Notes: generated by a model not told the origin, from the letters alone. Positions 1-18,156 are shown, counted from the first letter of the stretch. The stretch: DNA of 64,000 nt from Verrucomicrobia bacterium ADurb.Bin006 (GCA_002071485.1 MWFF01000132.1:21911-85910), one strand, 5' to 3'. A program made the numbers and translations.

Positions 1-1
1 G

Positions 2-622
2 CCCGGCAATGTCTACGCCAGCGAAGGGATCGAGATGCTCGAAGTCCCGTCCGTGCTCGACCGCTCGATGGGCGGGGTGCATCCGGTCGGAAACCCGGCG
101 TTCATGACCGATCCAGTCAACGCCCGGATTGTCGCCGAGCGTCTGGCCAGGGTGTTCGGCCAGCTCGACTCGAAATCGAGCGCTCTGTTCAACGCAAACC
201 TGAAAAGCTTCTCCGACAAACTCGCTGGAAAGCTGATCGAGTGGCGGAATCGCCTGGCACCGTTCAAAGGCAGCCGGATCGTGGCGTATCATAACTCGTG
301 GCCCTACTTCGCCCGCCGGTTCGGACTTCAGGTCGATCTCTTCCTCGAGCCGAAGCCCGGACTGCCGCCCACGCCAACCCATTTGGCCCAGGTCATGGCC
401 AAAATGAAGGAGAGCGGCGCACGGGTCATCCTCGTGCAGCCCTATCTCAACCGGCACACAGCGGAGACTGTCGCCAGCCACACAGGGGCCGTGGTGGTCG
501 ACGCCGCCGGCTTCCCGGGCGGCGTCAAGGGGACGGAGGGCGACTACTGCAAGTTCATGGACCATCTGGTCAATTCCTTGGCCGATGCGTTGGGAGGCAA
601 GACACCGTCGACCCAGCAATGA
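2..622 (+). CDS. metal ABC transporter substrate-binding protein, ZnuA/TroA-like (5' end outside window)
   Basis: The frame is open from the window edge; ORF 35..622 is the in-window part. Motifs GGVHPVGNPAFMTDP, YHNSWPYFARRFGL and ESGARVILVQPY are typical of Zn/Mn/Fe cluster solute-binding proteins. The stop overlaps the next start (ATGA at 619-622). Confidence 0.8.
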   Translation, partial: PGNVYASEGIEMLEVPSVLDRSMGGVHPVGNPAFMTDPVNARIVAERLARVFGQLDSKSSALFNANLKSFSDKLAGKLIEWRNRLAPFKGSRIVAYHNSWPYFARRFGLQVDLFLEPKPGLPPTPTHLAQVMAKMKESGARVILVQPYLNRHTAETVASHTGAVVVDAAGFPGGVKGTEGDYCKFMDHLVNSLADALGGKTPSTQQ

Positions 623-1521
623 CGAGCATGGAACCAATCAACATTCTGGAAATGCTTGTCATTCTCAAGTGGCCGCTGATCGCGAGCCTCACGTTGCCCT
701 GGCTGCTGGTCTATCTGGGCCTGCACGTCGTGCAGCGCGAGATCATCTTCGTCGACCTCGCTCTGGCACAAGTGGCGGCCCTGGGCACATGCGTCTCGCT
801 CCTGATGGACTGCCATCTCCATTCCTGGCAAAGCTACGCCTGGTCGGCCGCCTTCACCGTGGTTGGCGCCGTGGTCTTCACGCTCACCCGCAGCCGGCAT
901 CCGCGTGTGCCTCAGGAGGCGCTGATTGGGATTGTCTATGTCGTGGCGGCCGCCGCCGGAATCCTGATCCTCATGCGGAGCACCGGCGGCAAAGAAGAGC
1001 TGCAACGTTCGCTCGTTGGGGAGTTGCTGGTTGTGCCCCCGCGCGAGGTTATCCAGACCATCGGCTTGTACCTGGGCATCGGGGCGGTGCATTACGTCTT
1101 TCGTCGGAAATTCCTCGCGATTTCCAAAGACCCCGACGCCGCAGTCCGCTCCGGGCTCTCCGTTCGAGGGTGGGATTTCCTCTTCTACGTGACCTTTGGC
1201 TTCGTGGTCACTAGCTTCGTGCATATCGGAGGGGTGCTGTTGACATTCTCGTACCTGATCGTGCCGGCCGTATGCGGCAATTACCTGGCCCACACGCTGC
1301 GCCGACGCCTGGCGATCGGCTGGACCGTCGCCACCCTCGCCAGCCTGGCAAGCCTCTGCCTGACGCCGGCCCTCGACCTGCCTGTCGGGGCCACGACCGT
1401 ATGCATGCTGGGGCTTCTGCTGGCAATCACGATGGCCCTGGCGCGACGGGTCCCGGCACCGCAAACGCGTCCGGCCGCCGCGGACACCCTGACCGTCGCC
1501 CGCAGCCAGAGCGACGCATGA
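619..1521 (+). CDS. metal (Zn/Mn/Fe) ABC transporter permease, ABC-3 family (ZnuB/TroC-like)
   Basis: Internal ATG at 619 of ORF 298..1521. From there the protein is MTSMEPINILEMLVILKWPLIASL..., with multiple hydrophobic helices and REIIFVDLALAQVAALG. The upstream part of the ORF is Arg/Gly-rich read-through of the SBP gene in another frame. Confidence 0.85.
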   Translation: MTSMEPINILEMLVILKWPLIASLTLPWLLVYLGLHVVQREIIFVDLALAQVAALGTCVSLLMDCHLHSWQSYAWSAAFTVVGAVVFTLTRSRHPRVPQEALIGIVYVVAAAAGILILMRSTGGKEELQRSLVGELLVVPPREVIQTIGLYLGIGAVHYVFRRKFLAISKDPDAAVRSGLSVRGWDFLFYVTFGFVVTSFVHIGGVLLTFSYLIVPAVCGNYLAHTLRRRLAIGWTVATLASLASLCLTPALDLPVGATTVCMLGLLLAITMALARRVPAPQTRPAAADTLTVARSQSDA

Positions 1522-1530
1522 GAAGAGACA

Positions 1531-1752
1531 ATGAATCAGAAACAATACTCGAAACTCGATGTGACTCTGGCCAGCGTGTGCCGCAGTTGTCCGGTCTGCC
1601 GCACCGCGCGCCGGCGCCGGACCGGCTTGGCGTATTGGCTGGTCAATCGAGTCGAAAGCTCTCTCTGCCCGTTCTGCCGGGCCTACGAACGTGTTTACGG
1701 GCGCAAGTCCCATGAAACGGGCGCCGCGCACCAACCGCAATCCGACACATGA
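1531..1752 (+). CDS. small Cys-rich protein (CxxCxxC ... CxxC), unknown function
   Basis: 73-aa ORF with CRSCPVCR and CPFCRAYERVYGRK, which look like zinc-ribbon Cys pairs. It starts 9 nt after the permease stop, and its stop overlaps the next start (ATGA at 1749-1752), arguing for translation. Confidence 0.5.
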   Translation: MNQKQYSKLDVTLASVCRSCPVCRTARRRRTGLAYWLVNRVESSLCPFCRAYERVYGRKSHETGAAHQPQSDT

Positions 1753-2996
1753 TAGACCGCTGCACACTCTGGTTGGCGACAGCGCTGACTCTGGTCTGCC
1801 AGGCCGGCAGTCTCGCCGCCGGCGGCAGCCGCGCCCAGGCGCTAAAGGCCCTGTGTGGTCGGCTCGAGATCGGGCCAGGCGCAGTGATTGCCGACGTCGG
1901 TTGCGGCGAGGGACTCGACGCCGCGGAGTTCGCTCGAGTCGTCGGCGAGAGCGGCACGGTGTTGGCCCAGGAGATCGAACCCGCCAAGCTCGCCACGGTC
2001 GTCCGGGTGGCCGCCAAACACGGCCTGCATCAGATCGTTCCGGTCTTGGGACAGAGCGACGATCCCCGATTGCCCGATGGTTTCGTCGACCTCATCTACC
2101 TGAACCGTGTGTTTCATCACTTGGCCCAGCCCCAGGCAATGCTCCGGCGCCTCCATCAGGATCTTAAGCCCGGCGGTCTTTTGGTCGTTGTCGACCAGCA
2201 TAGGGGGCCGTTGACCGATTGGGCGCCGACCGAGCGTCGCGAGGAGGAGCACCATTGGACCGGCGAGACAACTGTCGTCCGCCTGGCACGTGAGGCGGGC
2301 TTCCTCTTTCACGACGTGCTCGAGGACGTGTGGCACGAACCGCAACCGTTCGTGCTCGCATTCCGGAAACCGGCTGCCCCGCCGCCGGATGCCGGCGATC
2401 CGGATTTGCCGCCTCCGCTCGACGCGAAGGCCCTGGTCCGTGCACTGCCAATCCCACAGCAAGACGGTTGGGCCGCGATTTTCGTCGGCCTGGACCGGGG
2501 ACGGGCCGTGCTGCCCGCTCTGAAAGAGGGGCTGCCGCCATCCACCCGGCTGGCGGACGTGGTCTTGGACGAGTGGGCTCTGACGCTGGAGGAACTGCCA
2601 CCTGGCGCTCCACACCCCGGCACCGAGGTGCTGAGAAAAAACAACAACAGCCTGGCCTTGCCCCCCGACATGCGTCTGGGCCTGGTGCTCTTCGTCGACG
2701 CCTACCAATGGCTCTGGGAACCGGTGCCGCTGCTCCGGCAACTCAGGGAACGTATGCCGGACTCAGGGCTGCTCGCCATCGTGGAACGTCAGGGCCCGGA
2801 CGATGAGCCGCGGCGCTTGGCCGGGCACCACCGGCGGATCTCTTCACGGCGGGTCGCAGAGGAGATGCGCGAGGCTGGCTTTCAATTGCGGCAAACCCTG
2901 GCGCCGCCGACCGAGGACCGCTGTTTCCTTCTGTTTGAGCCGCGGACCTCACACGAGAGGCTGCAGCCGGAAGCCCCGAAGGAGTTGCGCCCATGA
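1749..2996 (+). CDS. class I SAM-dependent methyltransferase with a second degenerate MTase-like half
   Basis: Motif I VIADVGCGEGLD, then LIYLNRVFHHL and LKPGGLLVVVD (Methyltransf_11/25-like). The C-terminal half (LVLFVDAYQWLWEP...GLLAIVE) looks like a second degraded MTase fold. The N-terminus LWLATALTLVCQAGSLAAG is hydrophobic. Confidence 0.8.
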   Translation: MIDRCTLWLATALTLVCQAGSLAAGGSRAQALKALCGRLEIGPGAVIADVGCGEGLDAAEFARVVGESGTVLAQEIEPAKLATVVRVAAKHGLHQIVPVLGQSDDPRLPDGFVDLIYLNRVFHHLAQPQAMLRRLHQDLKPGGLLVVVDQHRGPLTDWAPTERREEEHHWTGETTVVRLAREAGFLFHDVLEDVWHEPQPFVLAFRKPAAPPPDAGDPDLPPPLDAKALVRALPIPQQDGWAAIFVGLDRGRAVLPALKEGLPPSTRLADVVLDEWALTLEELPPGAPHPGTEVLRKNNNSLALPPDMRLGLVLFVDAYQWLWEPVPLLRQLRERMPDSGLLAIVERQGPDDEPRRLAGHHRRISSRRVAEEMREAGFQLRQTLAPPTEDRCFLLFEPRTSHERLQPEAPKELRP

Positions 2997-3259
2997 AACC
3001 TTGTTCGAACGATAGGCAAAATCGCGCTCCCAAAGGACCGCAGCACTGGTATCGTCTGACCGGGCTCCCCGGCTGGAGGCGGGCGCAACTTGGGATGCCT
3101 GCTTTCGGCGATCCACACTGCGTGCCCCATCCTCGCCCCAATCTCCTGCGACGGTTCATGGATGCTCTGCGACGACGGTTTGCGAGGCACACACTCGAGT
3201 CTGCCGACCCGTCTGAATCATCCCCCCAAAATGGTGAATCCTCCAACAACAACACATGA
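2993..3259 (+). CDS. small DUF5320-related protein (lacks the N-terminal MPRGDGTGP motif)
   Basis: 88-aa ORF. GGAG lies 8 nt upstream of the ATG. ATGA overlaps occur at both ends (2993-2996 and 3256-3259). HWYRLTGLPGWRRAQLG resembles the central ATGLPGW motif I recall from DUF5320 proteins. Confidence 0.45.
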   Translation: MKPCSNDRQNRAPKGPQHWYRLTGLPGWRRAQLGMPAFGDPHCVPHPRPNLLRRFMDALRRRFARHTLESADPSESSPQNGESSNNNT

Positions 3260-3660
3260 AAATCGCTATCCCTCTCGTAGCCGGACGCTTGTCTGAGCAC
3301 TTCGGCCATTGCGAGCAATTCGCCCTCATCGAAACCGATCTGGAATCCAGACAAATGGTCAGTCAAACCCGCATGGTTCCACCGCCGCACGCGCCGGGAG
3401 TTTTGCCGCGGTGGCTCCATGAACAAGGGGCGAAGGTGATCATTGCCGGCGGCATGGGCCGGCGCGCCCTGGATTTGTTCATTCAGAACGGCATCGCCGT
3501 CCATACCGGCATCGCGGGCGCTTCGCCCGAAGAGTTGGCCCACGCATTCCTGACGGGCGCTCTGGGCGACACCACGCCGACCTGTGGACATCGGCGGGGC
3601 GATGAGCGCCATCGCCATCACGGATGCCACCACGACGCCGGATCGAGCCACGAACCATGA
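3256..3660 (+). CDS. NifB/NifX-family (dinitrogenase FeMo-cofactor-binding fold) protein with His-rich tail
   Basis: MKIAIPL...HFGHCEQFALIE...VIIAGGMGRRALDLF is typical of the NifX/NifB-like family. The C-terminal tail is CGHRRGDERHRHHGCHHD. Confidence 0.85.
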   Translation: MKIAIPLVAGRLSEHFGHCEQFALIETDLESRQMVSQTRMVPPPHAPGVLPRWLHEQGAKVIIAGGMGRRALDLFIQNGIAVHTGIAGASPEELAHAFLTGALGDTTPTCGHRRGDERHRHHGCHHDAGSSHEP

Positions 3661-4016
3661 AAATCGCCATCTCAACACAGGGACCCCAACCGAACTCGGC
3701 CCTCGAACCGCGTTTCGGGCGCGCGCGCTATTTTCGGATCGTCGACACTGAGACCGGGCAGCAGACCGTAGTGGACAATGAAAACGCGGCCGGCGCCGTC
3801 CAAGGCGCCGGCCCCAGGGCGGTCCAGATGCTGGCGCGCCTGGGCGTCCAAGCCGTTCTGACCGGCCATGTCGGTCCCAAGGCATGGACCGCGCTCGAAT
3901 CGAGCAAGATTCAGGCGTATGCGGTCGACGGCGGATCGATCGAGCAAAGCGTGCGCGCCCTGCTGGCCGGCCAACTTCGGGCCATGTCGTGCGCCGAAAC
4001 GGAAGGGCACGGATGA
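3657..4016 (+). CDS. NifB/NifX-family protein (second paralogue)
   Basis: Internal ATG at 3657 of ORF 3624..4016, overlapping the previous stop as ATGA. MKIAISTQG...RFGRARYFRIVD...VLTGHVGPKAW matches the same family. Confidence 0.85.
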   Translation: MKIAISTQGPQPNSALEPRFGRARYFRIVDTETGQQTVVDNENAAGAVQGAGPRAVQMLARLGVQAVLTGHVGPKAWTALESSKIQAYAVDGGSIEQSVRALLAGQLRAMSCAETEGHG

Positions 4017-4897
4017 TGAGAAGCGCGCTGGAATGCATTCCATGTTTTGTGTCGCAAGCCCTGAACGTTACGAGGCTGGCCAGCGCCGACCCGCAGGTGC
4101 ACGAGCGGATTCTGCGCGAGGTGCTCCGGCGCGCCAGCGAGGCGGACCTGGCCCAGGCGCCGGCGCGGTTCAGCGGAACCATTCATCAGTTGGTTCGCGA
4201 CTTGACGGGCCAGAGCGATCCGTACATCGCGATCAAACAGGAATCGAATCGGCTCGCGCTCGAATTGCTGTCGGCCTGGCGCGAGCGCCTGCGGATGGCG
4301 GCGAATCCGCGTCTCGCCGCGGTGAAACTCGCCATTGCGGCCAATGTCATTGACTACGGCATCAAAGGCGACCTGACGGCGGAGCAGATCCCGGACGCGC
4401 TCGAACGCTCATTCGCCGCCCCCTTGCATGGCGACATCGAGGCGTTCTTCACCGCCGCCCAACGCGCGCCCGATATCCTGTTTCTGGCCGACAACGCGGG
4501 GGAACTGGTCTTCGACCGGCTGCTCCTCGAACTCTTGCCACACGAGAAAATCACCGTTGTGGTCAAGGGCGGACCGGCCATCAACGACGCTCTGCGGGCG
4601 GACGCGACCGCGGCAGGCCTGGACGGGTGGGTCGCCGTCACCGACACCGGGTGTGCGGGCGCCGGCATCCTGATCGAGTCATGTTCACCCGATTTCCGGC
4701 AACGGTTCGCGCGCGCCAGCCTGATCATCGCCAAAGGTCAGGCTAACTTCGAGTCGCTCGACGGCTGCGCGCACGACATCTTCTTCCTCTTCAAAGTGAA
4801 GTGCCCCGTCGTGGCGCGCCACATCGGCCGCGCCGTCGGGAGCTTGGTCCTGCACCGGAACATTCCGGACGGAAACACCCACAACAAACAGAGTTGA
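4013..4897 (+). CDS. DUF89/ARMT1-like (damage-control phosphatase family) protein
   Basis: Internal ATG at 4013 of ORF 3884..4897, overlapping the previous stop. MMRSALECIPCFVSQAL..., DILFLADNAGELVFD and IIAKGQANFESL are DUF89 hallmarks. Confidence 0.8.
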   Translation: MMRSALECIPCFVSQALNVTRLASADPQVHERILREVLRRASEADLAQAPARFSGTIHQLVRDLTGQSDPYIAIKQESNRLALELLSAWRERLRMAANPRLAAVKLAIAANVIDYGIKGDLTAEQIPDALERSFAAPLHGDIEAFFTAAQRAPDILFLADNAGELVFDRLLLELLPHEKITVVVKGGPAINDALRADATAAGLDGWVAVTDTGCAGAGILIESCSPDFRQRFARASLIIAKGQANFESLDGCAHDIFFLFKVKCPVVARHIGRAVGSLVLHRNIPDGNTHNKQS

Positions 4898-4918
4898 GCC
4901 AAATCAAGGAGAATGTAT

Positions 4919-5326
4919 ATGCCCAAAGGAGATCAAACCGACCCCTTGCGTCAGGGGCTGAAAAGCGGCAGGGCAGTCGGGTCTTGTGTCGGAACGCAAA
5001 GCCCCGGTTATGCGAATGGCGAATCGGGGTGTGGATTTGGCCGCGGACGGGGTCGAGGTAAAGGCGGTCGAGGATGGCGGCATCAGTTCCGTGCCACCGG
5101 CAAGACCGGACGGGAACGAGCGCAACCGAAAGTGCCATCGGCTGGCAGCGTGGCCTTAACCGCGGCGAGTGAAAGCGAGTCGGCGAAATCGAACACCGAA
5201 GCTCAACAACTCCGGCAGCAACTCGAAGCACTTCAAGCTGAGCTGGTGAACCTCCAGCAACGCCTCCATCAGTTGGAGAACAAAGGGGACCAGCAGCCGG
5301 AGACCGTCGGCACCGATCGAGGCTGA
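4919..5326 (+). CDS. DUF5320 family protein
   Basis: MPKGDQTDP... N-terminus, a GRGRGRGKGGRGWR Gly/Arg region, and a C-terminal coiled coil (LRQQLEALQAELVNLQQRLHQLE). AGGAG at 4907-4911 is well spaced for the ATG at 4919 and too close for the ATG at 4913. Confidence 0.75.
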   Translation: MPKGDQTDPLRQGLKSGRAVGSCVGTQSPGYANGESGCGFGRGRGRGKGGRGWRHQFRATGKTGRERAQPKVPSAGSVALTAASESESAKSNTEAQQLRQQLEALQAELVNLQQRLHQLENKGDQQPETVGTDRG

Positions 5327-5331
5327 CGCGC

Positions 5332-6804
5332 ATGAGGCTCGCCATTGCCAGCGGCAAGGGCGGCACCGGCAAGACCACCGTGGCCGTCAACCTGGCCGTG
5401 ACACTCGCGCGCCATGGTGAGTCAGTGGCTTACGTGGATTGCGATGTCGAGGCGCCGAACGGCCACCTTTTTCTCAACCCGACGGCCCTTCTCGAGAGTC
5501 TCGTCGACAGACTCGTTCCTCGGATCGACCGCAAGCGGTGCACGCTCTGCGGCTCGTGCGCACGCATCTGCCGCTTCAACGCCATCCTCTGCCTCCCCGA
5601 TCGGGTCCTGGTCTACGATGAGTTGTGCCACAGTTGCGGCGGCTGCGCGTTGGTGTGTCCCACCCAGGCCATCGCCGAAGAGCCGCACGCTATAGGCCTG
5701 CTCCGGACCGGCGCCGCCCAGGCGGTACAGTTCGTGTCCGGCACCCTCAACGTGGGCGAATCGAGCAGTCCGCCTGTGATTCGGGCCGCCAAACAAGCTG
5801 TACCACCGGCGGAGTGGACGATCCTCGATGCCCCGCCCGGCACGGCGTGTCCCATGGTCGAGACCGTGCGGGATTGCGACTGCGTATTGCTGGTCACCGA
5901 ACCGACACCGTTTGGCTTGCACGACTTACGGCTGGCCGTGGAGGTGGCACGGGCATTGAAACTGGCCTGCGGGGTGGTGATTAACCGGGCAGACCCAGTC
6001 GCGACTGAAACACGGAAGTGGTGCGAACAAGAGCGATTGCCAATTCTGGCCGAGATTCCCGATTCGCTGGCCGTCGCCAAGGCGTATTCGCACGGTCAAT
6101 TGATCATCGATGCCGTGCCGGGAATGGAACAGACCTTTAATCAGTTGCGGGAACGGCTGCTGGCGGAACTGCACAATTCGAGCGCAATGCAGAGATACCG
6201 GAAATCCTGCGAAACGGAGTTCTGGCAAAATGTCTTTCGCGCTGAATCGGATTACCTGCTAGCCCATTTAACGGGCTGCCAAGACGTTTTAAGCGTGGGC
6301 TGCGGCCCGGCCAGCATTGAAGCCGCGCTGAACCGACACGGCTTCCGCGTCACCGGCTTGGACATGTCGCCCGAGGCGTTCGGGGGCGGGGTGGAAGGTG
6401 TCCGGACAGTCGTGGCACGTGCCCAAGACATGCCGTTTCCACCTGCGTCCTTTGACGCGGTGATCTTTGTGGCTTCACTTCAATTCATCGAAGATTGGCG
6501 AAAGGCCCTGGCGCAGGCCGCTCGGGTCTTGCGCGACGCCGGACGGCTTGTTGTCATGCTGCTCAATCCCGCATCGGGCTTCTTCAAGGAGAAACGGCGC
6601 GATCCGCATTCCTATGTTCGGAAGATGCGGCATTCTGACCTGAACGAAATCGAAGAGGCCGTCCGCAAACGGTTCGATGTCCAGACGGAGTATTGTCTTG
6701 GGATCAAAGGCACGACCCTGTTCGAGAGCCGGGAACCCGCCAGCGCGGCGTTGTACGTCATAAGGGGCGTCCGAAAGGAACCTGGCTCATGGAAGAAATC
6801 TTGA
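5332..6804 (+). CDS. MinD/ParA-superfamily P-loop ATPase with two 4Fe-4S ferredoxin motifs, fused to a C-terminal class I SAM methyltransferase
   Basis: Deviant Walker A GKGGTGKT. Two cluster motifs, CTLCGSCARICRFNAI and CHSCGGCALVCPTQAI. From about residue 290 onward: VLSVGCGPASIEAAL, FDAVIFVASLQFIED and LRDAGRLVVMLLNP (Methyltransf_11-like). Confidence 0.85.
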   Translation: MRLAIASGKGGTGKTTVAVNLAVTLARHGESVAYVDCDVEAPNGHLFLNPTALLESLVDRLVPRIDRKRCTLCGSCARICRFNAILCLPDRVLVYDELCHSCGGCALVCPTQAIAEEPHAIGLLRTGAAQAVQFVSGTLNVGESSSPPVIRAAKQAVPPAEWTILDAPPGTACPMVETVRDCDCVLLVTEPTPFGLHDLRLAVEVARALKLACGVVINRADPVATETRKWCEQERLPILAEIPDSLAVAKAYSHGQLIIDAVPGMEQTFNQLRERLLAELHNSSAMQRYRKSCETEFWQNVFRAESDYLLAHLTGCQDVLSVGCGPASIEAALNRHGFRVTGLDMSPEAFGGGVEGVRTVVARAQDMPFPPASFDAVIFVASLQFIEDWRKALAQAARVLRDAGRLVVMLLNPASGFFKEKRRDPHSYVRKMRHSDLNEIEEAVRKRFDVQTEYCLGIKGTTLFESREPASAALYVIRGVRKEPGSWKKS

Positions 6805-7694
6805 TTCTAAGCGGCAAAGGCGGCACCGGCAAAACTTCGGTGACCGCTTCGCTGGCGGCCTTGGCCGACCGGCCGGTGCTGGCCGATTGCGACGTGGATG
6901 CCTCCAGCCTTCCGTTGATTCTGAAGCCACGCCTGCGACGCCAGGAAACGTTCATTGGCGGGCTGCGCGCTCGAATCCAACCGGGCCATTGTGTCGCCTG
7001 CGGCAAGTGCAAGGAGTTGTGCCGATTCGACGCAATCTTCTTCGATGGACCGTCAAACGGCCAGGTGCCGCGCACGTTTCGTGTCGATCCGTCAGCCTGT
7101 GAGGGCTGCGGCGTCTGCGAGTATTTCTGCGCCGAGCGCGCCATCGAGCTGATTCCCGCCGAGAATGGACGGTGGTTTGTCTCGGACACCCGCTTCGGCC
7201 CGCTCATTCACGCTCGTCTGCGCCCAGGCCAGGGGAATTCGGGTAAGCTTGTCACGCTCGTTCGCAGGCAGGCGCGCCTTGTTGCCGAAGCGTCCGGCCG
7301 CCAGTTGATCCTGATTGACGGTCCGCCCGGTATCGGCTGCACGACGATCGCAGCCCTAACCGGCACGACCCGAATGCTGGTCGTCACAGAGCCAACGCCA
7401 TCCGGCGAGCACGATTTGGAACGGGTGCTTGAATTGGGCCGTCACTTCGGAGTCCACGCCTGGGTCTGCCTCAATAAACACGACCTGAACCCTGCGATGA
7501 CTGAGCGCATCGAACACAAGGCGGCTGCGCTTGGCGCGACGATCGCCGGTCGGATTCCCTATCACATCTCAGTGACTGTTGCCCAACGCCAGGGACGTCC
7601 GGTCGTGGAACTTGACGATAGCCCGGCGGCGGCGGCGATAGCGCGCCTATGGCAGCAGATTCGCACGAGCCTTCCCACCGGGAAGGTTTCCTGA
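6789..7694 (+). CDS. MinD/ParA-superfamily P-loop ATPase with two 4Fe-4S ferredoxin motifs
   Basis: Internal ATG at 6789 of ORF 6693..7694, overlapping the previous gene by 16 nt. MEEILILSGKGGTGKTS, CVACGKCKELCRFDAI and CEGCGVCEYFCAERAI. Confidence 0.85.
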   Translation: MEEILILSGKGGTGKTSVTASLAALADRPVLADCDVDASSLPLILKPRLRRQETFIGGLRARIQPGHCVACGKCKELCRFDAIFFDGPSNGQVPRTFRVDPSACEGCGVCEYFCAERAIELIPAENGRWFVSDTRFGPLIHARLRPGQGNSGKLVTLVRRQARLVAEASGRQLILIDGPPGIGCTTIAALTGTTRMLVVTEPTPSGEHDLERVLELGRHFGVHAWVCLNKHDLNPAMTERIEHKAAALGATIAGRIPYHISVTVAQRQGRPVVELDDSPAAAAIARLWQQIRTSLPTGKVS

Positions 7695-7782
7695 AATGCA
7701 TGGGCGGTGCACGGGAGAAACATCCGATGGACTGGGAACTTGGCTTGATCGGAGCGAGTTTCTAGGTTAAAGGATTTGAACG

Positions 7783-8169
7783 ATGAACGTAGCCATACTG
7801 GGCGCCAGCAACAAACCTGACCGTTACAGTTACAAGGCATTGCGCATGCTCCGCGAAAAAGGGCATACGCCCTTCCCGGTCCATCCGGCCCTGTCCATGG
7901 TGGACGGCATTCCTGTCTGGTCTTCGTTGCGCGCGATTCCAGAACCGATCGACACGGTGACGGTCTACTTGTCCGCCCGCAACCAGGAGGCGATCGCAAA
8001 CGATCTGCTCGACGGCGGGATGCGCCGGGTGATCTTCAATCCCGGCGCCGAGAATCCCGAGCTGGCTGAGCGGCTTCGCCAGCACGGAAAGGAAGTCCTC
8101 GAAGCCTGCACGCTGGTCTTGCTGAGCACCGGACAGTTCGCCAAGTCTGGACCCGAAACCGCCACGTAA
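7783..8169 (+). CDS. CoA-binding domain protein (YccU-like)
   Basis: MNVAILGASNKPDRYSYKALRMLREKGHTPFPVHP...IDTVTVYL is typical of the CoA_binding_2 family. Confidence 0.8.
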   Translation: MNVAILGASNKPDRYSYKALRMLREKGHTPFPVHPALSMVDGIPVWSSLRAIPEPIDTVTVYLSARNQEAIANDLLDGGMRRVIFNPGAENPELAERLRQHGKEVLEACTLVLLSTGQFAKSGPETAT

Positions 8170-8233
8170 TCCGCCTATTTCACGCTGTGTTACGACACGG
8201 AGCGGTCAGACTCCCAGCACAGTCCATCCCGAG

Positions 8234-9193
8234 TCATCGGCGCGAGTCGGCGTGGAGTCTTCTCAAGTAGAATTGGCGGTTGCCGAATTGGGTTCGGGTG
8301 AGTTCATTCCGTTCGAGCAGCCGATCGACCACCGCCCAATCCGCTCCAGCCCGCATCAGGAACTCGTTGACGGCGTCCTGGCGCATAGGATGCACCGACG
8401 TGATGCTCAGAAGGTCTTCCTCGACATTGCCCGTGAACGCGAAGGCGTTGCCCTCGTACCCGATCAGGTACTCGACCCGGTCCATCCGCTCATCGAAGAT
8501 CTGATAGGCGCGATTGATCACTTCCTCGCGCGGGGCTCTCACGCGCTTCTCCGCCGGCGGCCGGATCGGCACGGACAGAAAGGCTGTGGCCGGCTTCAAG
8601 CGAGCCAGAAACTCCGCCACCTCGCCCACCGCGTCGTCGCTGTCGTTGACCCCCTCGACCAGCATGGTCTCGGTCACCAACTCACCTTGGAATATCCGCG
8701 CAAACTCGACAGTCCCATCGAGGATCGAGGAAAGCCGCAGGGCCCCGTGAGGCCGATCGATCTTGCGCCAAATCTCCGGGCGCGTGGAATCCACCTTCAG
8801 AGAGACCCAATCGGCCTTCATCAGGTCCGCCCGCACATCCTCGCGCCCGATCAGGGACGCGTTGGTGATCACGGCAATCTTGATTCCCAACGGCCTCAAC
8901 AGGTCGATCTCGCGCCCGAGATGAATGTCCAGGGTCGGTTCCCCATCCGGCACGAAGGTCAGGTAATCGACGGTCTCCCCTGCTCTTTGAGCCCTTTCCA
9001 CCTTGGTCTGAACATCGCGCGCGACGTTTTCCGGCTCGTAGAAGGCGCGCCGCCGCATCCGCATCGCGTTGGTCCGGCCCAACTGACAATACACACAGCT
9101 ATAGGTGCACAGCTTGGGCGGAATGTTGTTGATCCCCACGCTGCGCCCCAAACGCCTCGATGGAACGGGGCCAAAAGCAATCATTGTGTCCAT
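8234..9193 (-). CDS. radical SAM protein
   Basis: FGPVPSRRLGRSVGINN followed by the CxxxCxxC cluster motif CTYSCVYCQ. The antisense ORF 8252..9280 is Arg/His-rich and is rejected. Confidence 0.85.
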   Translation of the reverse strand: MDTMIAFGPVPSRRLGRSVGINNIPPKLCTYSCVYCQLGRTNAMRMRRRAFYEPENVARDVQTKVERAQRAGETVDYLTFVPDGEPTLDIHLGREIDLLRPLGIKIAVITNASLIGREDVRADLMKADWVSLKVDSTRPEIWRKIDRPHGALRLSSILDGTVEFARIFQGELVTETMLVEGVNDSDDAVGEVAEFLARLKPATAFLSVPIRPPAEKRVRAPREEVINRAYQIFDERMDRVEYLIGYEGNAFAFTGNVEEDLLSITSVHPMRQDAVNEFLMRAGADWAVVDRLLERNELTRTQFGNRQFYLRRLHADSRR

Positions 9194-9731
9194 TCCTTCC
9201 CCGACTTATCGGTTGAAAATGAAGTGTCTGGGATCGATTGGTATTCGAACAAGGGCATAGTCTTCTGTTTGTCGAATTGAGGCTCCTGCTGCGTGGCCAG
9301 GATCATCCCGTTCCACGCCCCATCGGCGCAACCTCGAATGTAACCGATGGCAAACCGCGTGCCAAAGTATGAGCTCGTTCTCTACGACACACGCAATCGT
9401 CGGTCCGGATGCCGACTCCTTTGACGCCGTCGTGCGACGCAGCGTTGTATTGGTAGAGTGTGCGGAGCCATGATGCGGGCCGTGTCACATCCAATTGCCG
9501 ATTCTGAAACGTATCTGTTCATGTTGGGTGTGACCGCGGGCCAGGTTGAATCTGCCCGTTGTAAAGCTTCGTCGGACAAACTGTTTGCGGGCAAGCCCGA
9601 GTCTTGCGTAGCTTCGGCAGCATGCTCTTCGTGAATGCTTGCGGGTTTTGCCTGGCCCGGCCTGGCGTGAAGGTCCGGCGCCGACGCAGTCCGCGCGGCG
9701 TCGGACGGAAGGGTGCGCCCCCCGATCGCCC

Positions 9732-11048
9732 ATGATTCGGCACGCCAGGCAGTCGTCAAAGCGCTGGGTGACCGGCACCGCGGACATTCGGGCTGGCGAA
9801 GGGCGCGCCGTGCTGGCCGCCGCGGTGCTGTTTTTCGTCCTGCTTACCAGTCTGATGCTCTTGCGCCCCGTGCGCGAGGCCCTCGGCCTGGCCCGGGGCG
9901 TCGAGAGTGTGCGGCAACTGTTTTTCGTGACCGTGCTCAGCACATTGCCGTTGGTCCCGCTCTTCGGCTGGCTGGTCTCGAGATGCTCGCGCCGCAGGCT
10001 GATGCGGGTCTCGCTGCATGGCTGCGCCGGAATTCTGGTCGCATTCTTCATCGGACTGACGCTTCTTCCCGAGAGCCCGCGGCTGTTGGTGGCGGCCGTC
10101 TACTACATCTTTCACTCGGTCTTCAATCTCTTCGTCATCTCGCTCTTCTGGGCGTTCATGGTCGATCACTTCAACCTCGCCCAAAGCAAACGCCTCTTCC
10201 CCGCCATCGCCCTGGGCGGCAGCCTCGGGGCGATTGCCGGATCGCTGATCTCCTGGCGCCTGGTCGCGTATTTCGGCGTCAACGGCCTCTTCCTATTGGC
10301 CGCAGCATTGCTCGAAGCGGCCGTTTGGCTCGCCGAACATTTCACGCGGACACACGCGGCGTCGCTGCCCGCCCCCACCGACATGACTCCTATTGGCGGG
10401 TCCTGGTTTGCCGGGATCAATGCCGTCGCGCAATCCGCCTATCTGCGCGGGGTCGGCGTGTGGATCGTCCTCAGCGGCACGGTCTCGACGTTTCTCTACT
10501 TCACCGGCCTGCGTCTGGTGGGCGCGGCCAGCGTGTCGACCGCCGGCCAGACGGCCTGGTTCGCATACATCAACCTCTGGACGCAACTGGCCACGCTGTT
10601 GGCGCAGGGGCTTCTGGCCAGACGAATCATGCGCGTCGCGGGAGTCGGGGGCGCTTTGGCGGTCCTGCCCCTCCTTGCCTCCGGAGGCTTCGCTCTGCTC
10701 GCCGCGGCGCCCGCGCTCGCCGCGTTCACGATCGTCAATGCCCTGTTCCGCGCGGCCCAACAGGGGATTGCGGGCCCAGCCGAGCAAACCCTGTTCACGG
10801 TTCTGCCGCAGCAACACAAGTACAAAGCCAAGTCGTTTCTGGACACGTGCGGATACCGTGCGGGCGATGCCCTCGGCGCCTATCTCGATCGATTCCTGGC
10901 CATCGCCGGGTTCGGTCTTCTCCCGCTGGCGGGCGCCGTGCTCGCGCTGTCGAGTCTCTGGGTGCTGCTCTCGACATTCCTGGGCCGCCGCCAGGCGCGT
11001 TTCGCACGCCCCGACACGAGTATCCTTGAATCTGAAGGCCGGTTGTAA
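9732..11048 (+). CDS. multi-pass membrane transporter, TLC (ATP/ADP-translocase-like)/MFS-type
   Basis: About 11-12 hydrophobic segments. LLRPVREALG and FWAFMVDHFNLAQSKRLFPAIALGGSLGAIAG resemble AAA/TLC-family nucleotide exchangers. The start is uncertain (ATG 9732 chosen; the ORF opens at 9639). Confidence 0.7.
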   Translation: MIRHARQSSKRWVTGTADIRAGEGRAVLAAAVLFFVLLTSLMLLRPVREALGLARGVESVRQLFFVTVLSTLPLVPLFGWLVSRCSRRRLMRVSLHGCAGILVAFFIGLTLLPESPRLLVAAVYYIFHSVFNLFVISLFWAFMVDHFNLAQSKRLFPAIALGGSLGAIAGSLISWRLVAYFGVNGLFLLAAALLEAAVWLAEHFTRTHAASLPAPTDMTPIGGSWFAGINAVAQSAYLRGVGVWIVLSGTVSTFLYFTGLRLVGAASVSTAGQTAWFAYINLWTQLATLLAQGLLARRIMRVAGVGGALAVLPLLASGGFALLAAAPALAAFTIVNALFRAAQQGIAGPAEQTLFTVLPQQHKYKAKSFLDTCGYRAGDALGAYLDRFLAIAGFGLLPLAGAVLALSSLWVLLSTFLGRRQARFARPDTSILESEGRL

Positions 11049-11088
11049 AACACTTCTTGGCGGTGAATCTGAACAAAACACGCGATCT

Positions 11089-12765
11089 ATGTCTTTCAAA
11101 GTTGTGATTGTGGGCGGCGTGGCGGCCGGTCCCAAGGTGGCCGCAAAAATCATGCGGCTCAATCCCGAGGCGGAAGTCACCGTGGTCGAAAAGGGCAAGT
11201 TCCTTTCCTACGCGGGCTGCGGCCTGCCCTACTACATCTCGGGCATGGTCAAGGATCAAAAGGACCTGATGAGCACGCCGATCGGGGTGGTGCGCGACAC
11301 CGCCTTCTTCCAAAAGGTCAAGAACGTCCGGATCCTTAACGAAACCGAGGCCATCGAGATCGACCGCGCCCGGAAACGGGTCCGCGCACTCCCGAAGGGC
11401 AAGAAGGAGGAGATCTGGTTGGACTACGACAAGTTGGTCCTCGCCACTGGCGCGAAACCGGTCATCCCTCCAATACCGAATGTGAACCTCGGCAACATCT
11501 ATACACTGCACGGCATGCACGACGCCGAGGCGATCAAGTCCCTCCTGGGCGAAGCCAGGGCGCGCGACGTCGTGATCGTCGGCGGCGGCCTGATCGGCGT
11601 GGAGACCACCGAGGCCCTGGTCCACAGCGGCTGCCGCGTCACGCTCGTCGAGATGCTGCCGCAGGTCTTGCGTGTGCTCGATTGGGAAATGGCGCGCCTT
11701 GTGGAACAGCACATGGAGTCGCACGGGGTCAAAGTCATGACCAACACCCAGGTGACGGCATTCGAGGGGGAAGATCGCGTGACCGGCGTGATGACCACCC
11801 GCGGCCATCTCCCCGCCGACATGGTGATCCTGGCAATCGGAGTCAAACCCAACGTCGACCTGGCTCGCGCAGCCGATCTGGCTATCGGTCCGAACGGCGG
11901 TATCCGGGTCGATGACACCATGCGCACCTCCGACCCCAACATCTACGCGGCCGGCGATTGTGTCGAGACCACCGACCTCGTGACGGGCAAACCCTGCTTC
12001 GTCCCCCTGGGATCGACCGCCAACAAGCAGGGACGCGTCGCGGCAATCAATGTCTGCGGCGGAACGGATCGCTTCCCCGGCGTTCTCGGCAGCACCGTCT
12101 GCAAGGTGTTCGATTTCTGTGTGGCTCGCACCGGCCTGACCGAGGCGGCCGCCCGCCAGCACGGCTACGAGACCGTCATGGTTCTGGTCCCGGACGTCGA
12201 TCGCGCCCATTACATTCCCGGCGCGCAACTCATCGTCATGAAATTGGTCGTGGACGCCCGCACCCGCAAGTTGCTGGGCGCCCAAGCCGTCGGGTCCGGT
12301 GTCGGCGATAAGCGTATCGATGTCGCGGCCATGGCTCTCACGGCCGGCATGACGGTGGACCAACTGTCCCAAGCCGACCTCTGCTACGCCCCGCCATACG
12401 CCACCGCGCTCGATGCCATCATCACGGCCGCCAACGTCGCCCGCAACAAACTCGACGGCCTCCTGGCCGGCATCAGCTCGCAAGAGGTCAAGCAGCGACT
12501 CGACGCCAAAGAAGATTTCGTCTTTCTCGATGTCCGCAGTCCGGCCGAGCACGCCGAGACACATCTCGCCGGCTCGACGCTGATCCCCTTGGGCGCGTTG
12601 CGCGCACGCTTGAACGAATTGCCCAAAGACAAGGAGATCATCGCGTTCTGCAAAGCCTCCCTCCGCGGCTATGAAGCAGCCCGCATCCTGCAGGGGGCCG
12701 GATTCACACGCGTCCGCGTCATGGACGGCGGGGTGGCCGCCTGGCCGTTCGAGAAATGTCACTAG
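11089..12765 (+). CDS. CoA-disulfide/persulfide reductase-type FAD oxidoreductase with C-terminal rhodanese domain
   Basis: Internal ATG at 11089 of ORF 10393..12765. VVIVGGVAAGPK (FAD binding), redox Cys in SYAGCGLPYY, VVIVGGGLIGVE (NAD binding), and a rhodanese active-site loop FCKASLRG. Confidence 0.9.
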   Translation: MSFKVVIVGGVAAGPKVAAKIMRLNPEAEVTVVEKGKFLSYAGCGLPYYISGMVKDQKDLMSTPIGVVRDTAFFQKVKNVRILNETEAIEIDRARKRVRALPKGKKEEIWLDYDKLVLATGAKPVIPPIPNVNLGNIYTLHGMHDAEAIKSLLGEARARDVVIVGGGLIGVETTEALVHSGCRVTLVEMLPQVLRVLDWEMARLVEQHMESHGVKVMTNTQVTAFEGEDRVTGVMTTRGHLPADMVILAIGVKPNVDLARAADLAIGPNGGIRVDDTMRTSDPNIYAAGDCVETTDLVTGKPCFVPLGSTANKQGRVAAINVCGGTDRFPGVLGSTVCKVFDFCVARTGLTEAAARQHGYETVMVLVPDVDRAHYIPGAQLIVMKLVVDARTRKLLGAQAVGSGVGDKRIDVAAMALTAGMTVDQLSQADLCYAPPYATALDAIITAANVARNKLDGLLAGISSQEVKQRLDAKEDFVFLDVRSPAEHAETHLAGSTLIPLGALRARLNELPKDKEIIAFCKASLRGYEAARILQGAGFTRVRVMDGGVAAWPFEKCH

Positions 12766-12870
12766 CCCGGATTTCGTTGTCATCTTCCCGGTGGTGAGTA
12801 ATCTGGGCTAAGATCGCGCGAGCAACAAGCACGCCGGCATGCAACCGAACATCGAAAATCAAACTCAGAC

Positions 12871-13575
12871 ATGAATCCCGCATCCACCACCCCCGAGACC
12901 ACCGCCGCAAATCGCATCCCGCTGATTGGCGAGATCGCACCCGCCTTCAAGGCGCACACGACCCAGGGGCCGATCGATTTCCCCAAAGACTACGCGGGCA
13001 AGTGGGTCATCTTCTTCAGTCACCCCGCGGATTTCACGCCCGTCTGCACGACCGAATTCATGACCTTTGCCGCCATGATGCCCGAGTTCAAGGCCCTCAA
13101 CTGCGAACTGATCGGGCTCTCGATCGACAGCCATTACGCGCATATCGCCTGGCTGCGCACCATCAAGGAGAAAATCACATACAAGACCATGACCAACATC
13201 GAGGTCACGTTCCCGCTCATCTCCGACATGACGATGGAGGTGGCCAAGGCCTATGGCATGCTCCAGCCCGGCTCCAGCAGCACCGAGGCGGTGCGCGCCG
13301 TCTTCATCATCGATCCCAAGGCCAAGATTCGGGCCGTTCTCTTCTACCCGATGTCCAACGGACGCAACTTCCCGGAGATCAAGCGCCTGCTCATCGGCCT
13401 GCAAACGAGCGACAAATACAACGTCGCCACACCCGCCGACTGGCAGCCCGGCGAGGACGTGATCGTTCCGCCGCCCGGTTCCTGCGGTACAGCCAAACAG
13501 CGGGTCGAGAAACCGGACGCCGACGCCTACGCGCTCGACTGGTTCATGACGTTCAAGAAACTGCCCAAGGTGTGA
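12871..13575 (+). CDS. peroxiredoxin, 1-Cys (Prx6-like) type
   Basis: WVIFFSHPADFTPVCTTEF peroxidatic-Cys motif, IGLSIDSHYAHIAW and PADWQPGEDVIVPPP. Confidence 0.9.
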   Translation: MNPASTTPETTAANRIPLIGEIAPAFKAHTTQGPIDFPKDYAGKWVIFFSHPADFTPVCTTEFMTFAAMMPEFKALNCELIGLSIDSHYAHIAWLRTIKEKITYKTMTNIEVTFPLISDMTMEVAKAYGMLQPGSSSTEAVRAVFIIDPKAKIRAVLFYPMSNGRNFPEIKRLLIGLQTSDKYNVATPADWQPGEDVIVPPPGSCGTAKQRVEKPDADAYALDWFMTFKKLPKV

Positions 13576-14062: not shown

Positions 14063-14445
14063 TGAGGTGCCACCGCGCAAATGCCCCGCCACGCCGGTCT
14101 CGAACAGGGCCGGCTGCAATGCGTTCGTGGTGCACACCTTCAGGACGTTGACCGCCGGGTTGAGATCTTCGGTGCCGGCGCTTTCGAGGCGGCGGGCGAG
14201 CGAGGGAGTCATGAATCAGTCGTCGCATTCTGCAACGTCGTTTCCTGACTGACGTTGCAGCCTGCTCGGGCCGGCATCAGCGCTCCGACGCGCCACCCTC
14301 GAGAAAGGGCGCATTCACGAGCCATTCGCCTCATAGCCCCTCCCGCGCAAGCCTGGCACGGTCCGTGCATTATCCTCGCACGCCCGGTGGTCGAACCGAC
14401 GACTCTGGAAGACAGCCGACAGTGGAGACACGACTCGATAACGCG

Positions 14446-15405
14446 ATGAATGAACAACACAGAATCCTGGCCGGGCAACGCATTGGTTTGTTCGGTCGCG
14501 GGGGCAGCGGCAAGAGCACATGCGCCGTCCTTCTGGCTAAAGTGCTTGCTAAAGCCGGCTATGCCGTCTGCGTCGTGGACGCCGATTCCACAAACGAAGG
14601 CTTGCCTCAGGCCCTCGGCGCGGACAGAACACCCGAATCGTTGCTTGCCTGGTTCGGGGGAACCGTGTTCAGCGGCGGCCCGGTCACGTGTCCGGTCGAC
14701 GATCCGCTGCCCCTGGCCGGTGCACGCCTCAGAGCGGGCCAACTCCCCGGCCAATATGTGGCTCGAACGCCCGACGGCATTCGCGTCTTCCAGGCGGGCA
14801 AGATCGGGCTGCTAGGACCCGGCGCAGGCTGCGACGGCCCGATGACCAAAATCGCTCGCGATTTCGCATTCGAACCGGAAGGGATGGCGCCGGTCACCAT
14901 TGTGGACTTCAAGGCCGGCGCCGAAGACGCCTCGCGCGGGGTCATTACCAGTCTGGACTGGATCGTTGTGGTCCTGGATCCCAGTTACGCGGGAATCCGC
15001 GCCGCCGCGACAATGAAAACGATGCTCGACCAAATGCGCGCGGGCTATTTGCCGGCAACGCAGCACCTTGCATCCCCCGAACAAGCCGATGTGATCCGCC
15101 GCGCCTACCGCGAAGCGCGCACCAAAGGCGCGCTTTACGTGCTCAACAAGGTGCCCGACGCGGAGACGGAGCGTCTCATGAGGCAACGCCTGCTTGAATC
15201 GCAGATCGAAGCCCTCGCATCCATCAGAGAAGATCCGGGGCTCCGCCGGTCGTGGTTGCATGGAGAGTGTCTCCAGAGCGCCGCCGCGGAAGCTGAAGCC
15301 GCCAAGATCGTCCGCGCCCTCGAACAGCACTGCGGCACTGCCACGAACCAACAGTCAACCCCACGCCATGCATCGAACGATGCCCTCGCCCCAGAGGCGG
15401 TCTGA
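14446..15405 (+). CDS. CooC/AcsF-like MinD-superfamily P-loop NTPase
   Basis: Internal ATG at 14446 of ORF 14365..15405. IGLFGRGGSGKST Walker A, VCVVDADSTNEGL, GPGAGCDGPMTKIARDF (CooC-like Cys loop) and VTIVDFKAGAED. Confidence 0.8.
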   Translation: MNEQHRILAGQRIGLFGRGGSGKSTCAVLLAKVLAKAGYAVCVVDADSTNEGLPQALGADRTPESLLAWFGGTVFSGGPVTCPVDDPLPLAGARLRAGQLPGQYVARTPDGIRVFQAGKIGLLGPGAGCDGPMTKIARDFAFEPEGMAPVTIVDFKAGAEDASRGVITSLDWIVVVLDPSYAGIRAAATMKTMLDQMRAGYLPATQHLASPEQADVIRRAYREARTKGALYVLNKVPDAETERLMRQRLLESQIEALASIREDPGLRRSWLHGECLQSAAAEAEAAKIVRALEQHCGTATNQQSTPRHASNDALAPEAV

Positions 15406-16531: not shown

Positions 16532-16928
16532 AGTGATGGTACGCCGGGCGTGCTGTCTGTTGCGTCGCGACGCGCTGTCTTGTCTATACACAGCGTCAGA
16601 AGTTCTGCCGCGTGAGGGCACGCCGCCTGCTCATTGGTGGTCAGGTTCCTCGATTCTTTCTCTCCTGACCACCCCAGATTGTCCACACTATGAGCATCGA
16701 CAGCGTGTGATCGGGTCGGGCGACGCCCTCGTCGCCCGCGAACGCATTCTGCGATCCCATCCGCCGGGGACTAGGACGTCTCCACTCCTGCGTGCTCCAG
16801 TGCACGAGCAGGCACACTGGACGGGATTCCCTGACCCGGTGCTGCATCGCAGATGTCGCTCCGCCGAATTGCTGTCCCCACAAATAGCTTGTAACTGTGC
16901 GTGCATTCGCGGCTCGATAGCGCCTGAC

Positions 16929-18119: not shown

Positions 18120-18156
18120 GGCATTTCCTCCCGGCGCTTGAAATCCTGTCATCCCG

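Follow-up and report, generated by a model that had tools for sequence, protein, structure and literature searches.

An ORP (orange protein) system with an OrpR-type activator in a single sixteen-gene operon of a Verrucomicrobia bacterium, with a putative metal importer module among its genes

The 64,000-nucleotide stretch of DNA considered here (GCA_002071485.1 MWFF01000132.1:21911-85910; hereafter the window) derives from Verrucomicrobia bacterium ADurb.Bin006 and begins with a run of twelve densely packed plus-strand genes, the core of which is well supported as an ORP (orange protein) system with an OrpR-type activator (Table 1). A check of the open reading frames (ORFs) and junctions of the window reproduced the coordinates of the initial annotation exactly, and Pfam confirmed most of its domain calls, the products of 73 and 88 amino acids (aa) being the two without a Pfam match. 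Start and stop codons share an ATGA overlap at positions 619-622, 1749-1752, 2993-2996, 3256-3259, 3657-3660 and 4013-4016, the two MinD genes overlap by 16 nucleotides (nt) at 6789-6804, and the remaining gaps measure 9, 21, 5 and 88 nt. Terminator-like sites are absent from the intergenic positions of the operon; the 11 sites found, against 8 expected, are all intragenic. Activated-sludge metatranscriptome assemblies match the operon at 100% identity, and their contigs extend over most junctions; these fit one transcript without proving it, as they are unstranded, assembled, of low depth and possibly affected by DNA carry-over. The view that the genes form a single, tightly packed operon is upheld.

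The size of the unit, initially put at twelve genes, had to be revised. A 140-kb metagenome contig (L001) that is 100% identical to positions 1-9500 of the window adds four operon genes 5' of it, encoding a NifX-like protein, a metallo-beta-lactamase (MBL)-fold protein, a porin-like protein and the missing 5' part of the ZnuA gene. Towards the window the order is an activator gene (448 aa), a 323-bp spacer and genes for proteins of 142, 280, 485 and 320 aa, the last being the ZnuA-type protein; all upstream genes are co-directional and, the spacer apart, separated by gaps of at most 27 nt. The operon consequently comprises 16 genes and starts at a sigma-54 promoter about 3.1 kb upstream of the window.

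This promoter motif, TGGCATGACAGTTGCA (L001 6248-6263; TGGCAT-N5-TTGCA), is of the -24/-12 type and occupies the end of the spacer, 13 nt ahead of the first ATG of the operon (L001 6248-6276). It is the best-conserved island of the spacer in two related loci, the close relative L003 and the more distant L089, and the only well-conserved one in the comparison with L089. Of 38 loci drawn from many phyla, 24 have a matching motif ahead of the homologous first NifX gene, in most cases 29-57 nt away from its start codon; chance would provide about 0.03 matches per 270 nt. Promoter-to-start spacings of 29-33 nt are also seen in L003, L015, L016, L018, L028, L043, L082 and L089. Because the -12 element ends as close as 13 nt to the start codon, the transcript would have almost no leader and hence no space for a Shine-Dalgarno sequence.

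Table 1. Features of the operon, its immediate neighbour and the matching RNA contigs (window coordinates)
Feature	Position	Strand	Basis or genes covered
ZnuA/TroA-type (cluster A-I) binding protein, 3' part (206 of 320 aa)	2..622	+	PF01297, E=9e-29
ABC-3 metal permease (ZnuB/AztB-like)	619..1521	+	PF00950, E=1.5e-26, entire model covered
73-aa Cys4 mini-protein (CxxC...CPFC), unnamed family	1531..1752	+	147 representatives
415-aa class I S-adenosylmethionine (SAM) methyltransferase, long C-terminal extension	1749..2996	+	Methyltransf_23/11/25, residues 42-185
88-aa truncated DUF5320-like protein (central GW..Y.LTGLPGW motif)	2993..3259	+	custom hidden Markov model (HMM)
NifX-like protein, MrpORP 'Di-Nase' type (HFGHCE ... 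C-H-H-D), His-rich tail	3256..3660	+	PF02579, NF041136
Orange protein (Orp8/ORP) homologue	3657..4016	+	PF02579; PDB 2WFB
DUF89/ARMT1-like protein with N-terminal CxxC (PH1575/AF1104 kind)	4013..4897	+	PF01937, E=3.6e-59
DUF5320 protein (N-terminal half Gly/Arg-rich, C-terminal coiled coil)	4919..5326	+	PF17253, 56.8 bits
Orp3/Orp4-type MinD ATPase, 2x[4Fe-4S], fused class I methyltransferase	5332..6804	+	CbiA/ParA, Fer4 x2, Methyltransf_11
Second Orp3/Orp4-type MinD ATPase, 2x[4Fe-4S]	6789..7694	+	ParA/CbiA, Fer4 x2
CoA_binding_2 protein, final operon gene	7783..8169	+	PF13380, E=1.5e-28
Variable 1.7-kb cassette: mini-protein, methyltransferase, 88-aa gene	1559..3247		absent from L003
Radical SAM protein, convergent to operon	8234..9193	-	PF04055
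RNA contig	1239-2300		permease / mini-protein / methyltransferase
RNA contig	2845-3940		methyltransferase / 88-aa gene / both NifX genes
RNA contig	3756-4270		
RNA contig	4648-5658		DUF89 / DUF5320 / ATPase
RNA contig	7520-7945		ATPase / CoA-binding gene

The activator gene (L001 4606-5952) stands directly upstream of the operon and encodes PAS, Sigma54_activat and HTH_8 domains (Pfam). In Desulfovibrio vulgaris Hildenborough, OrpR senses low redox potential by means of a [4Fe-4S] cluster on the PAS cysteines C52, C61 and C65 (PMC8359166); the cysteines of the PAS domain here, C49-x8-C58-x3-C62, have the same spacing. The protein also carries the atypical GAFTDA loop with which DVU2106 is listed (PMC4641369). 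Of the 30 enhancer-binding protein matches that cover the N-terminus, 28 carry the motif CxDVFRASICExxC, and an activator homologue with 43-70% identity is adjacent in 24 of 80 loci that were collected from named genomes by anchoring on homologues of the first ATPase, with synteny determined by tblastn. By these signatures the activator is of the OrpR type, and the operon would, on the precedent of the Desulfovibrio protein, be induced only when the redox potential is very low.

The ORP complex and OrpR have been studied in Desulfovibrio since 2011 (PMC6345978, PMC8359166, PMC3897727). In D. vulgaris the complex contains two MinD-like proteins, Orp3 and Orp4, with two [4Fe-4S] motifs each, together with Orp5 and the orange protein Orp8, while Orp9 is MrpORP, and the Desulfovibrio orp genes form two sigma-54 operons (PMC6345978). 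Counterparts of several of these components are found in the window. Both ATPases combine a CbiA/ParA domain with two inserted Fer4 stretches, which is the Orp3/Orp4 architecture; the Di-Nase-type NifX protein aligns with positions 265-364 of the MrpORP model NF041136 (E=8e-34, 117 bits against a cut-off of 450; NCBIfam); and the top PDB match of the protein encoded next to it, over residues 2-108 of 119, is the D. gigas ORP structure 2WFB (E=1.7e-17). The 142-aa product of the first operon gene, a candidate counterpart of the small Fe-S protein Orp5, is a third NifX-like protein with a weak PF02579 match (E=1e-6), and both methyltransferase domains are weakly matched by the 'DVU_1556 family' model (NCBIfam).

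With an orange protein, an MrpORP-type domain, Orp3/Orp4-type ATPases, the OrpR signatures and a sigma-54 promoter at the locus, its assignment to the ORP system is well supported. The metallocofactor pathway that was initially taken to be undescribed thus has at its core a known system, albeit one whose cellular function is still unsettled. A wholly undescribed pathway, unrelated to anything studied, could appeal to the DUF5320, Cys4 mini-protein, COG1237-type MBL and methyltransferase genes, which have no assigned function, and to full-text searches for orange protein, DUF5320 and OrpR that returned nothing beyond the Desulfovibrio ORP work; the five features just named largely refute it, and we regard it as highly improbable.

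The suggestion that NifX-like, MinD-ferredoxin and DUF5320 genes recur together in anaerobes was borne out by the 80 loci, which cover Planctomycetota, Verrucomicrobiota, NC10, Acidobacteriota, Desulfobacterota, Bacillota, Ignavibacteria, Omnitrophota and others. The second ATPase accompanies the first at 77 loci, the ORP-type NifX at 67, the Di-Nase-type NifX at 60 and the first-gene NifX at 33. Around this core there is a shell of MBL (22/80), DUF5320 (22/80 by tblastn, with seven more found by Pfam in a 23-locus sample), radical SAM (22/80, within the ORP neighbourhood and usually co-directional) and DUF89 genes (19/80). Less frequent are a methyltransferase like the fused one and a CoA-disulfide reductase (CoADR)-rhodanese protein (eight loci each) and the porin-like protein (three); the mini-protein, the 415-aa methyltransferase, the 88-aa ORF and the CoA-binding protein were each found at none. 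Core and shell are therefore widely linked and the importer is not. Among 148 otherwise unassigned neighbour ORFs from the 23 other ORP loci sampled with Pfam, the recurrent families are Mrp/NBP35 (8, that is at 8 of the 23 loci), DUF5320 (7), 4HBT thioesterase (7), NifX (6) and methyltransferases (5). The thioesterase genes, seen in the neighbourhoods of L010-L031, also follow a homologue of the 415-aa methyltransferase in L091 and an MBL gene in L090.

These partners also bear on the proposal that the ORP core has a MinD-like role, in cell division or in positioning at the poles, with the metal genes serving only to mature its Fe-S proteins. The ATPases do belong to the MinD/ParA class, the complex has been described as 'putatively involved in cell division' with a polar location of MrpORP (PMC6345978), and the DVU2106 regulon is labelled 'Cell division' (PMC4641369). 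Yet every conserved partner is metal- or cluster-related (NifX-like, Mrp/NBP35, NifU and radical SAM proteins), and division genes are missing both from the genes called at the examined loci and from the recurrent neighbour families, which makes this explanation quite improbable in our estimation.

Within the operon lies a putative metal importer. The genes of its binding protein (PF01297) and permease (PF00950) are translationally coupled, and the full 320-aa binding protein is encoded at L001 9042-10004. Its top NCBIfam match is the zinc protein AztC, with 94.7 bits where the cut-off is 350, and its top PDB matches are PsaA and ZnuA; the AztB/ZnuB-like NCBIfam matches of the permease likewise all fall below their cut-offs. 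Candidate ligands of the binding protein include the His of a DPH motif and a His (YHNSW) where PsaA aligns a Glu, a second His aligning ambiguously. We take the Glu at that position of PsaA to be a metal ligand of Mn/Fe-type proteins, in which case a His there favours zinc without being decisive. The module is retained within the operon in L003, at about 95% nucleotide identity, and in L089, at 81-90% protein identity. Importer, His-rich tail, DUF89 and methyltransferases are indeed additions to the ORP core, as the initial annotation had it, although the joining of the importer to that core is conserved only in this immediate clade and is rare elsewhere.

The 485-aa protein encoded ahead of the binding protein (L001 7571-9028) has no Pfam match; it has a signal peptide and a coiled coil and ends in ...HKF. 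In its predicted structure a long helix at the N-terminus is followed by about 17 long strands (low confidence, pLDDT 53.7), and all listed Foldseek matches are outer-membrane porins, OprP, AlgE, OmpC and DcaP among them; given this pLDDT and TM-scores of 0.3-0.5 the call is made at the level of fold class only, and the protein is best described as a predicted porin-like outer-membrane channel. It represents an unnamed family, with no sequence match in Pfam, NCBIfam or PDB, to which L019 705-2141 (minus strand), L031 10384-11628 and L015 19697-20833 also belong and whose members share the signal peptide, a coiled coil near the N-terminus and a barrel with the C-terminal motif G-[PS]-H-x-[AH]-[HA]-[KR]-[FY]. 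In L001, L019 and L031 the gene is located directly 5' of a ZnuA-type gene.

A second indication of metal handling is provided by the tail of the Di-Nase-type NifX protein. In most phyla the orthologues are 108-112 aa long and end in CDH, a motif noted for MrpORP. Long His-rich extensions with 7-11 His residues occur in the window clade (L001-L003 and L089), where the operon holds the Znu-type importer, and in L007 and L008, where a ZIP transporter is adjacent; shorter His-rich tails are found in L006, L028 and L043. This small-sample correlation between tail and importer is the best evidence available here for a substrate shared by the importer and the ORP proteins.

We therefore read the locus as a single-operon, Verrucomicrobia-type ORP system in which the importer feeds metal to the ORP complex under low redox conditions, and assign to this reading a probability of roughly 0.65. 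Its elements derive from different sources: expression at low redox from OrpR, cluster handling from the biochemistry of the Desulfovibrio proteins, and metal supply from the embedded importer and the tail. In such a scheme the ATPases and NifX-like proteins would, as in Desulfovibrio, assemble into a complex carrying Fe-S and other metal-sulfide clusters. Thiophilic cations would be scarce in reducing, sulfidic conditions, and the operon would respond by importing a divalent metal, most likely Zn2+, with Ni, Co, Mn or Fe as possible alternatives. The His-rich tail would buffer the metal and hand it to the ORP complex, which might then carry out an ATP- and electron-dependent handling of metal-sulfur species.

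Several observations weigh against this reading. On the side of the ORP complex, no Mrp/NBP35 domain, the other part of Orp9, was found in the operon, which has only a separate Di-Nase protein, and the function of the Desulfovibrio complex is itself unsettled, with a cell-division phenotype (PMC6345978). On the side of the importer, the AztC and ZnuA scores are far under the equivalog cut-offs and one canonical His is ambiguous, so that any assignment of metal specificity is tentative. No gene for a cognate ABC ATPase is present in the operon, the window or the 10 kb upstream (74 kb in total), which makes the importer a putative one; that the gene might lie upstream had been anticipated, but those 10 kb hold the activator, NifX-like, MBL-fold and porin-like genes. 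The L003 and L089 loci likewise lack one, and the only ABC ATPase gene of the window (19365-20093) is part of a MacB-type efflux system, within an HlyD-FtsX/MacB-ABC_tran efflux operon at 16533-20093. Next to ORP cores elsewhere ZnuA occurs at 2 and ABC-3 at 1 of the 80 loci, no transporter family recurs among the 148 Pfam-searched neighbour ORFs, and because the importer is so rare elsewhere its biochemical coupling to the ORP proteins relies on co-transcription, for which the RNA contigs have the limits given above, and on the tail correlation, which comes from two or three lineages only. Finally, the cassette of mini-protein, methyltransferase and 88-aa gene is dispensable in the 95%-identical L003.

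In the main rival reading, importer, mini-protein and methyltransferase would constitute an independent metal-homeostasis module that is merely co-regulated by low redox and hands nothing over to the ORP complex. Such a module is missing from nearly all other ORP loci; homologues of the methyltransferase and the mini-protein accompany a NikR-ZnuA-ABC_tran-ABC-3 operon that lacks ORP genes (L090), the mini-protein stands beside a ZIP gene in L007, and L003 has lost the cassette while retaining the rest of the operon. Against independence, the importer is flanked by ORP-type genes on both sides (the first NifX 5', the other NifX and MinD genes 3') through translationally coupled junctions, the His-rich tail on an ORP-type protein tracks the presence of the importer, and in L091 a homologue of the 415-aa methyltransferase follows an OrpR-type activator and a NifX gene, no importer having been called within 8 kb on either side. 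On balance we consider an independent module rather unlikely and retain the supply of metal to the ORP complex as the preferred reading.

Apart from the cassette, which it lacks, L003 is about 95% identical to the window and collinear with it, and a recent insertion was considered; it was rejected on account of L089, in which all three genes occupy the same position, so that L003 has most likely lost them. L002, a second assembly of the window species, has a 2-bp gap and a disrupted methyltransferase frame at about 11900-12376 (window about 2520-2996), for which either variation within the population or a fault in the assembly might account. The 415-aa methyltransferase has some 115 full-length homologues, mostly from named Verrucomicrobiota or Planctomycetota, and those in L089, L090 and L091 lie in OrpR/NifX or Znu-type contexts.

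The mini-protein belongs to a family of 147 cluster representatives among 1.84 billion proteins (E<=1e-3) with four conserved Cys residues, and the predicted model folds into four helices (pLDDT 77) and has no structural match in PDB. Its homologues adjoin the ABC-3 gene in L089, lie 5' of the ZIP gene in L007 and 3' of the MBL gene in L090, and one, in L091, is fused to a methyltransferase beside an OrpR-type activator. An insertion artefact had been suspected, because the opening 15 residues are similar to an N-terminal extension carried by the L003 NifX protein, and is ruled out by the conservation of the family; a Trm112-like zinc-knuckle partner of methyltransferases is unsupported, the model being all-helical and lacking a PDB match.

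With a custom HMM of DUF5320, for which neighbouring loci supplied the sequences, the 88-aa ORF reaches 18.8 bits, where 200 shuffled sequences stay at or below 6.0 bits; its counterpart in L089, an ORF of 92 aa in the corresponding place, shares 74% identity with it. Full membership of DUF5320 is unsupported, as the protein shares the central motif only and has neither a Pfam match nor a BLASTP match to the DUF5320 protein of the operon, which itself scores above the Pfam cut-off of 27 bits (Table 1). L089 keeps the 88-aa gene and lacks the canonical DUF5320 gene, and L003 shows the reverse; as each keeps only one, the two genes may be redundant.

A different use of imported metal, inorganic iron-sulfur (thioferrate-like) storage and mobilisation of the kind known from Pyrococcus IssA, with an importer for Fe2+ or Mn2+ and not Zn2+, has to be considered in view of the three PF02579 proteins, one with a charged tail, since IssA belongs to the same family. 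Cluster A-I binding proteins include Mn/Fe-specific members, and genes for a CoA-disulfide-reductase/rhodanese protein and a 1-Cys peroxiredoxin follow downstream, the former having relatives at 8 of the 80 ORP cores. The tail is, however, His/Cys-rich and not Lys/Arg-rich, the binding protein has a His where PsaA, of the Mn/Fe type, has its Glu, and no ferritin or Feo genes were seen in about the first 25 kb of the window. We judge iron-sulfur storage improbable and continue to favour metal supply to the ORP complex. The genes concerned belong to a plus-strand set at 9639-13575, comprising a TLC/MFS-like transporter, the reductase-rhodanese fusion (TIGR03385 score 448 bits, under the cut-off) and the peroxiredoxin, that is syntenic in L003-L005 and partly so in L006. 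The proximity of related reductases to those eight ORP cores hints at a link to persulfide chemistry.

In a bolder proposal the additions of this lineage may disclose what ORP systems do: ORP would be a redox-gated acquisition machine for thiophilic metals (Zn, Ni or Co) at times when sulfide renders these metals scarce. Porin, binding protein and permease would deliver the metal to a His-tailed NifX chaperone, and the MinD/[4Fe-4S] ATPases would insert or store metal-sulfide clusters; the permease might be powered by a non-cognate ATPase or, a more radical idea, be coupled to the ORP ATPases, and the methyltransferases might modify the Gly/Arg-rich DUF5320 partners. We offer this as speculation and think it improbable.

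Gene fusions tie further families to the core. The MinD-methyltransferase fusion is shared, among the best 120 homologues, with the closest relative only, and the fused ORF is present in five independent assemblies; in two Pirellulales genomes (L076 and L077) the first MinD gene is followed in the same slot by a separate methyltransferase gene whose product shares 53-54% identity with the fused domain. A related ORP operon (L006 8802-10004) encodes a 400-aa DUF89-DUF5320 fusion, which connects two families of unknown role in Rosetta-stone fashion and is followed by genes for a NifU_N-ParA (Mrp-like) protein and a hybrid-cluster protein. The DUF89 protein of the window scores 200.9 bits in Pfam and 156.7 bits to NF040824 (cut-off 440), with PDB matches 2G8L and 2FFJ, and the 280-aa MBL-fold protein upstream is of the COG1237 type. 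The CoA-binding gene is conserved in L003-L005 and found nearby in L006.

Some observations further along the window stand apart from these arguments. A weak sigma-54-like motif, TGGCAGCAGATTCGCA, at 7650-7665 within the 3' end of the second ATPase gene lies 133 nt before the CoA-binding gene and could be an internal promoter. One RNA contig (run X4, depth 22; window 7788-8462) crosses the convergent junction of the CoA-binding and radical SAM genes, reflecting either an overlap of 3' transcript ends or DNA in the library. Six kb downstream of the operon, at 14365-15405, a 346-aa P-loop ATPase of the ParA/NUBPL/CooC kind matches MrpORP over the P-loop only; it might replace the missing Mrp domain.

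What is already known in this locus is the ORP/OrpR core, and what is new is the putative uptake route of this lineage and the methyltransferases within the operon. ORP systems are widespread in anaerobes, with relatives in dozens of phyla-level lineages, and have no agreed function although complex and regulator have been in the literature since 2011. A complete predicted route for metal from the outer membrane to the cytoplasm, encoded inside the operon, points to metal handling over cell division, as does the occurrence of the His-rich tail mainly where a Znu-type or ZIP-type importer adjoins. The fusions of DUF89 with DUF5320, of MinD with a methyltransferase and of a Cys4 domain with a methyltransferase tie accessory families to the core and point in the same direction. 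Two unnamed families have also been defined, the Cys4 four-helix mini-protein and the ZnuA-associated coiled-coil porin.

Known systems resemble the locus in different parts. The importer module shares with ZnuABC, AztABCD and MntABC the coupled PF01297 binding protein and PF00950 permease, AztC and ZnuA giving the best scores. It departs from them in having no ATPase gene in the operon or within 74 kb, in scores far below the equivalog cut-offs, in a dedicated porin-like gene ahead of the binding-protein gene and in its place in a sigma-54/OrpR operon instead of under Zur or MntR.

The small single-domain PF02579 proteins resemble IssA of Pyrococcus furiosus and NifX/NafY, non-covalent carriers of inorganic metal-sulfur species, and one of them has a charged C-terminal tail; unlike the cationic Lys/Arg-rich tail of IssA this one is His/Cys-rich, and the kinship is at the level of the Pfam family only. 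No nitrogenase genes were seen in the examined parts of the window. The tail may also be likened to those of HypB, UreE, CooJ and SlyD, accessory proteins that combine a His-rich C-terminus with a neighbouring metal transporter; the NifX-like fold and the context differ.

The closest parallel is with the orp/OrpR locus of D. vulgaris Hildenborough (DVU2103-DVU2109) and the ORP of D. gigas (2WFB). Common to both are two adjacent MinD ATPases with 2x[4Fe-4S], an orange-protein homologue, a Di-Nase (PF02579) domain with HFGHCE, a PAS/sigma-54 activator with C-x8-C-x3-C and GAFTDA, and a -24/-12 promoter. Whereas the Desulfovibrio genes form two divergent three-gene operons, a single operon of 16 genes is found here, in a Verrucomicrobiota-like activated-sludge bacterium, and the Di-Nase domain stands alone with no Mrp/NBP35 domain. 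Over and above the Desulfovibrio set this operon encodes two DUF5320 proteins, a DUF89 and an MBL-fold protein, two methyltransferases of which one is fused to an ATPase, the Cys4 mini-protein, a CoA-binding protein and the porin/ZnuA/ABC-3 module.

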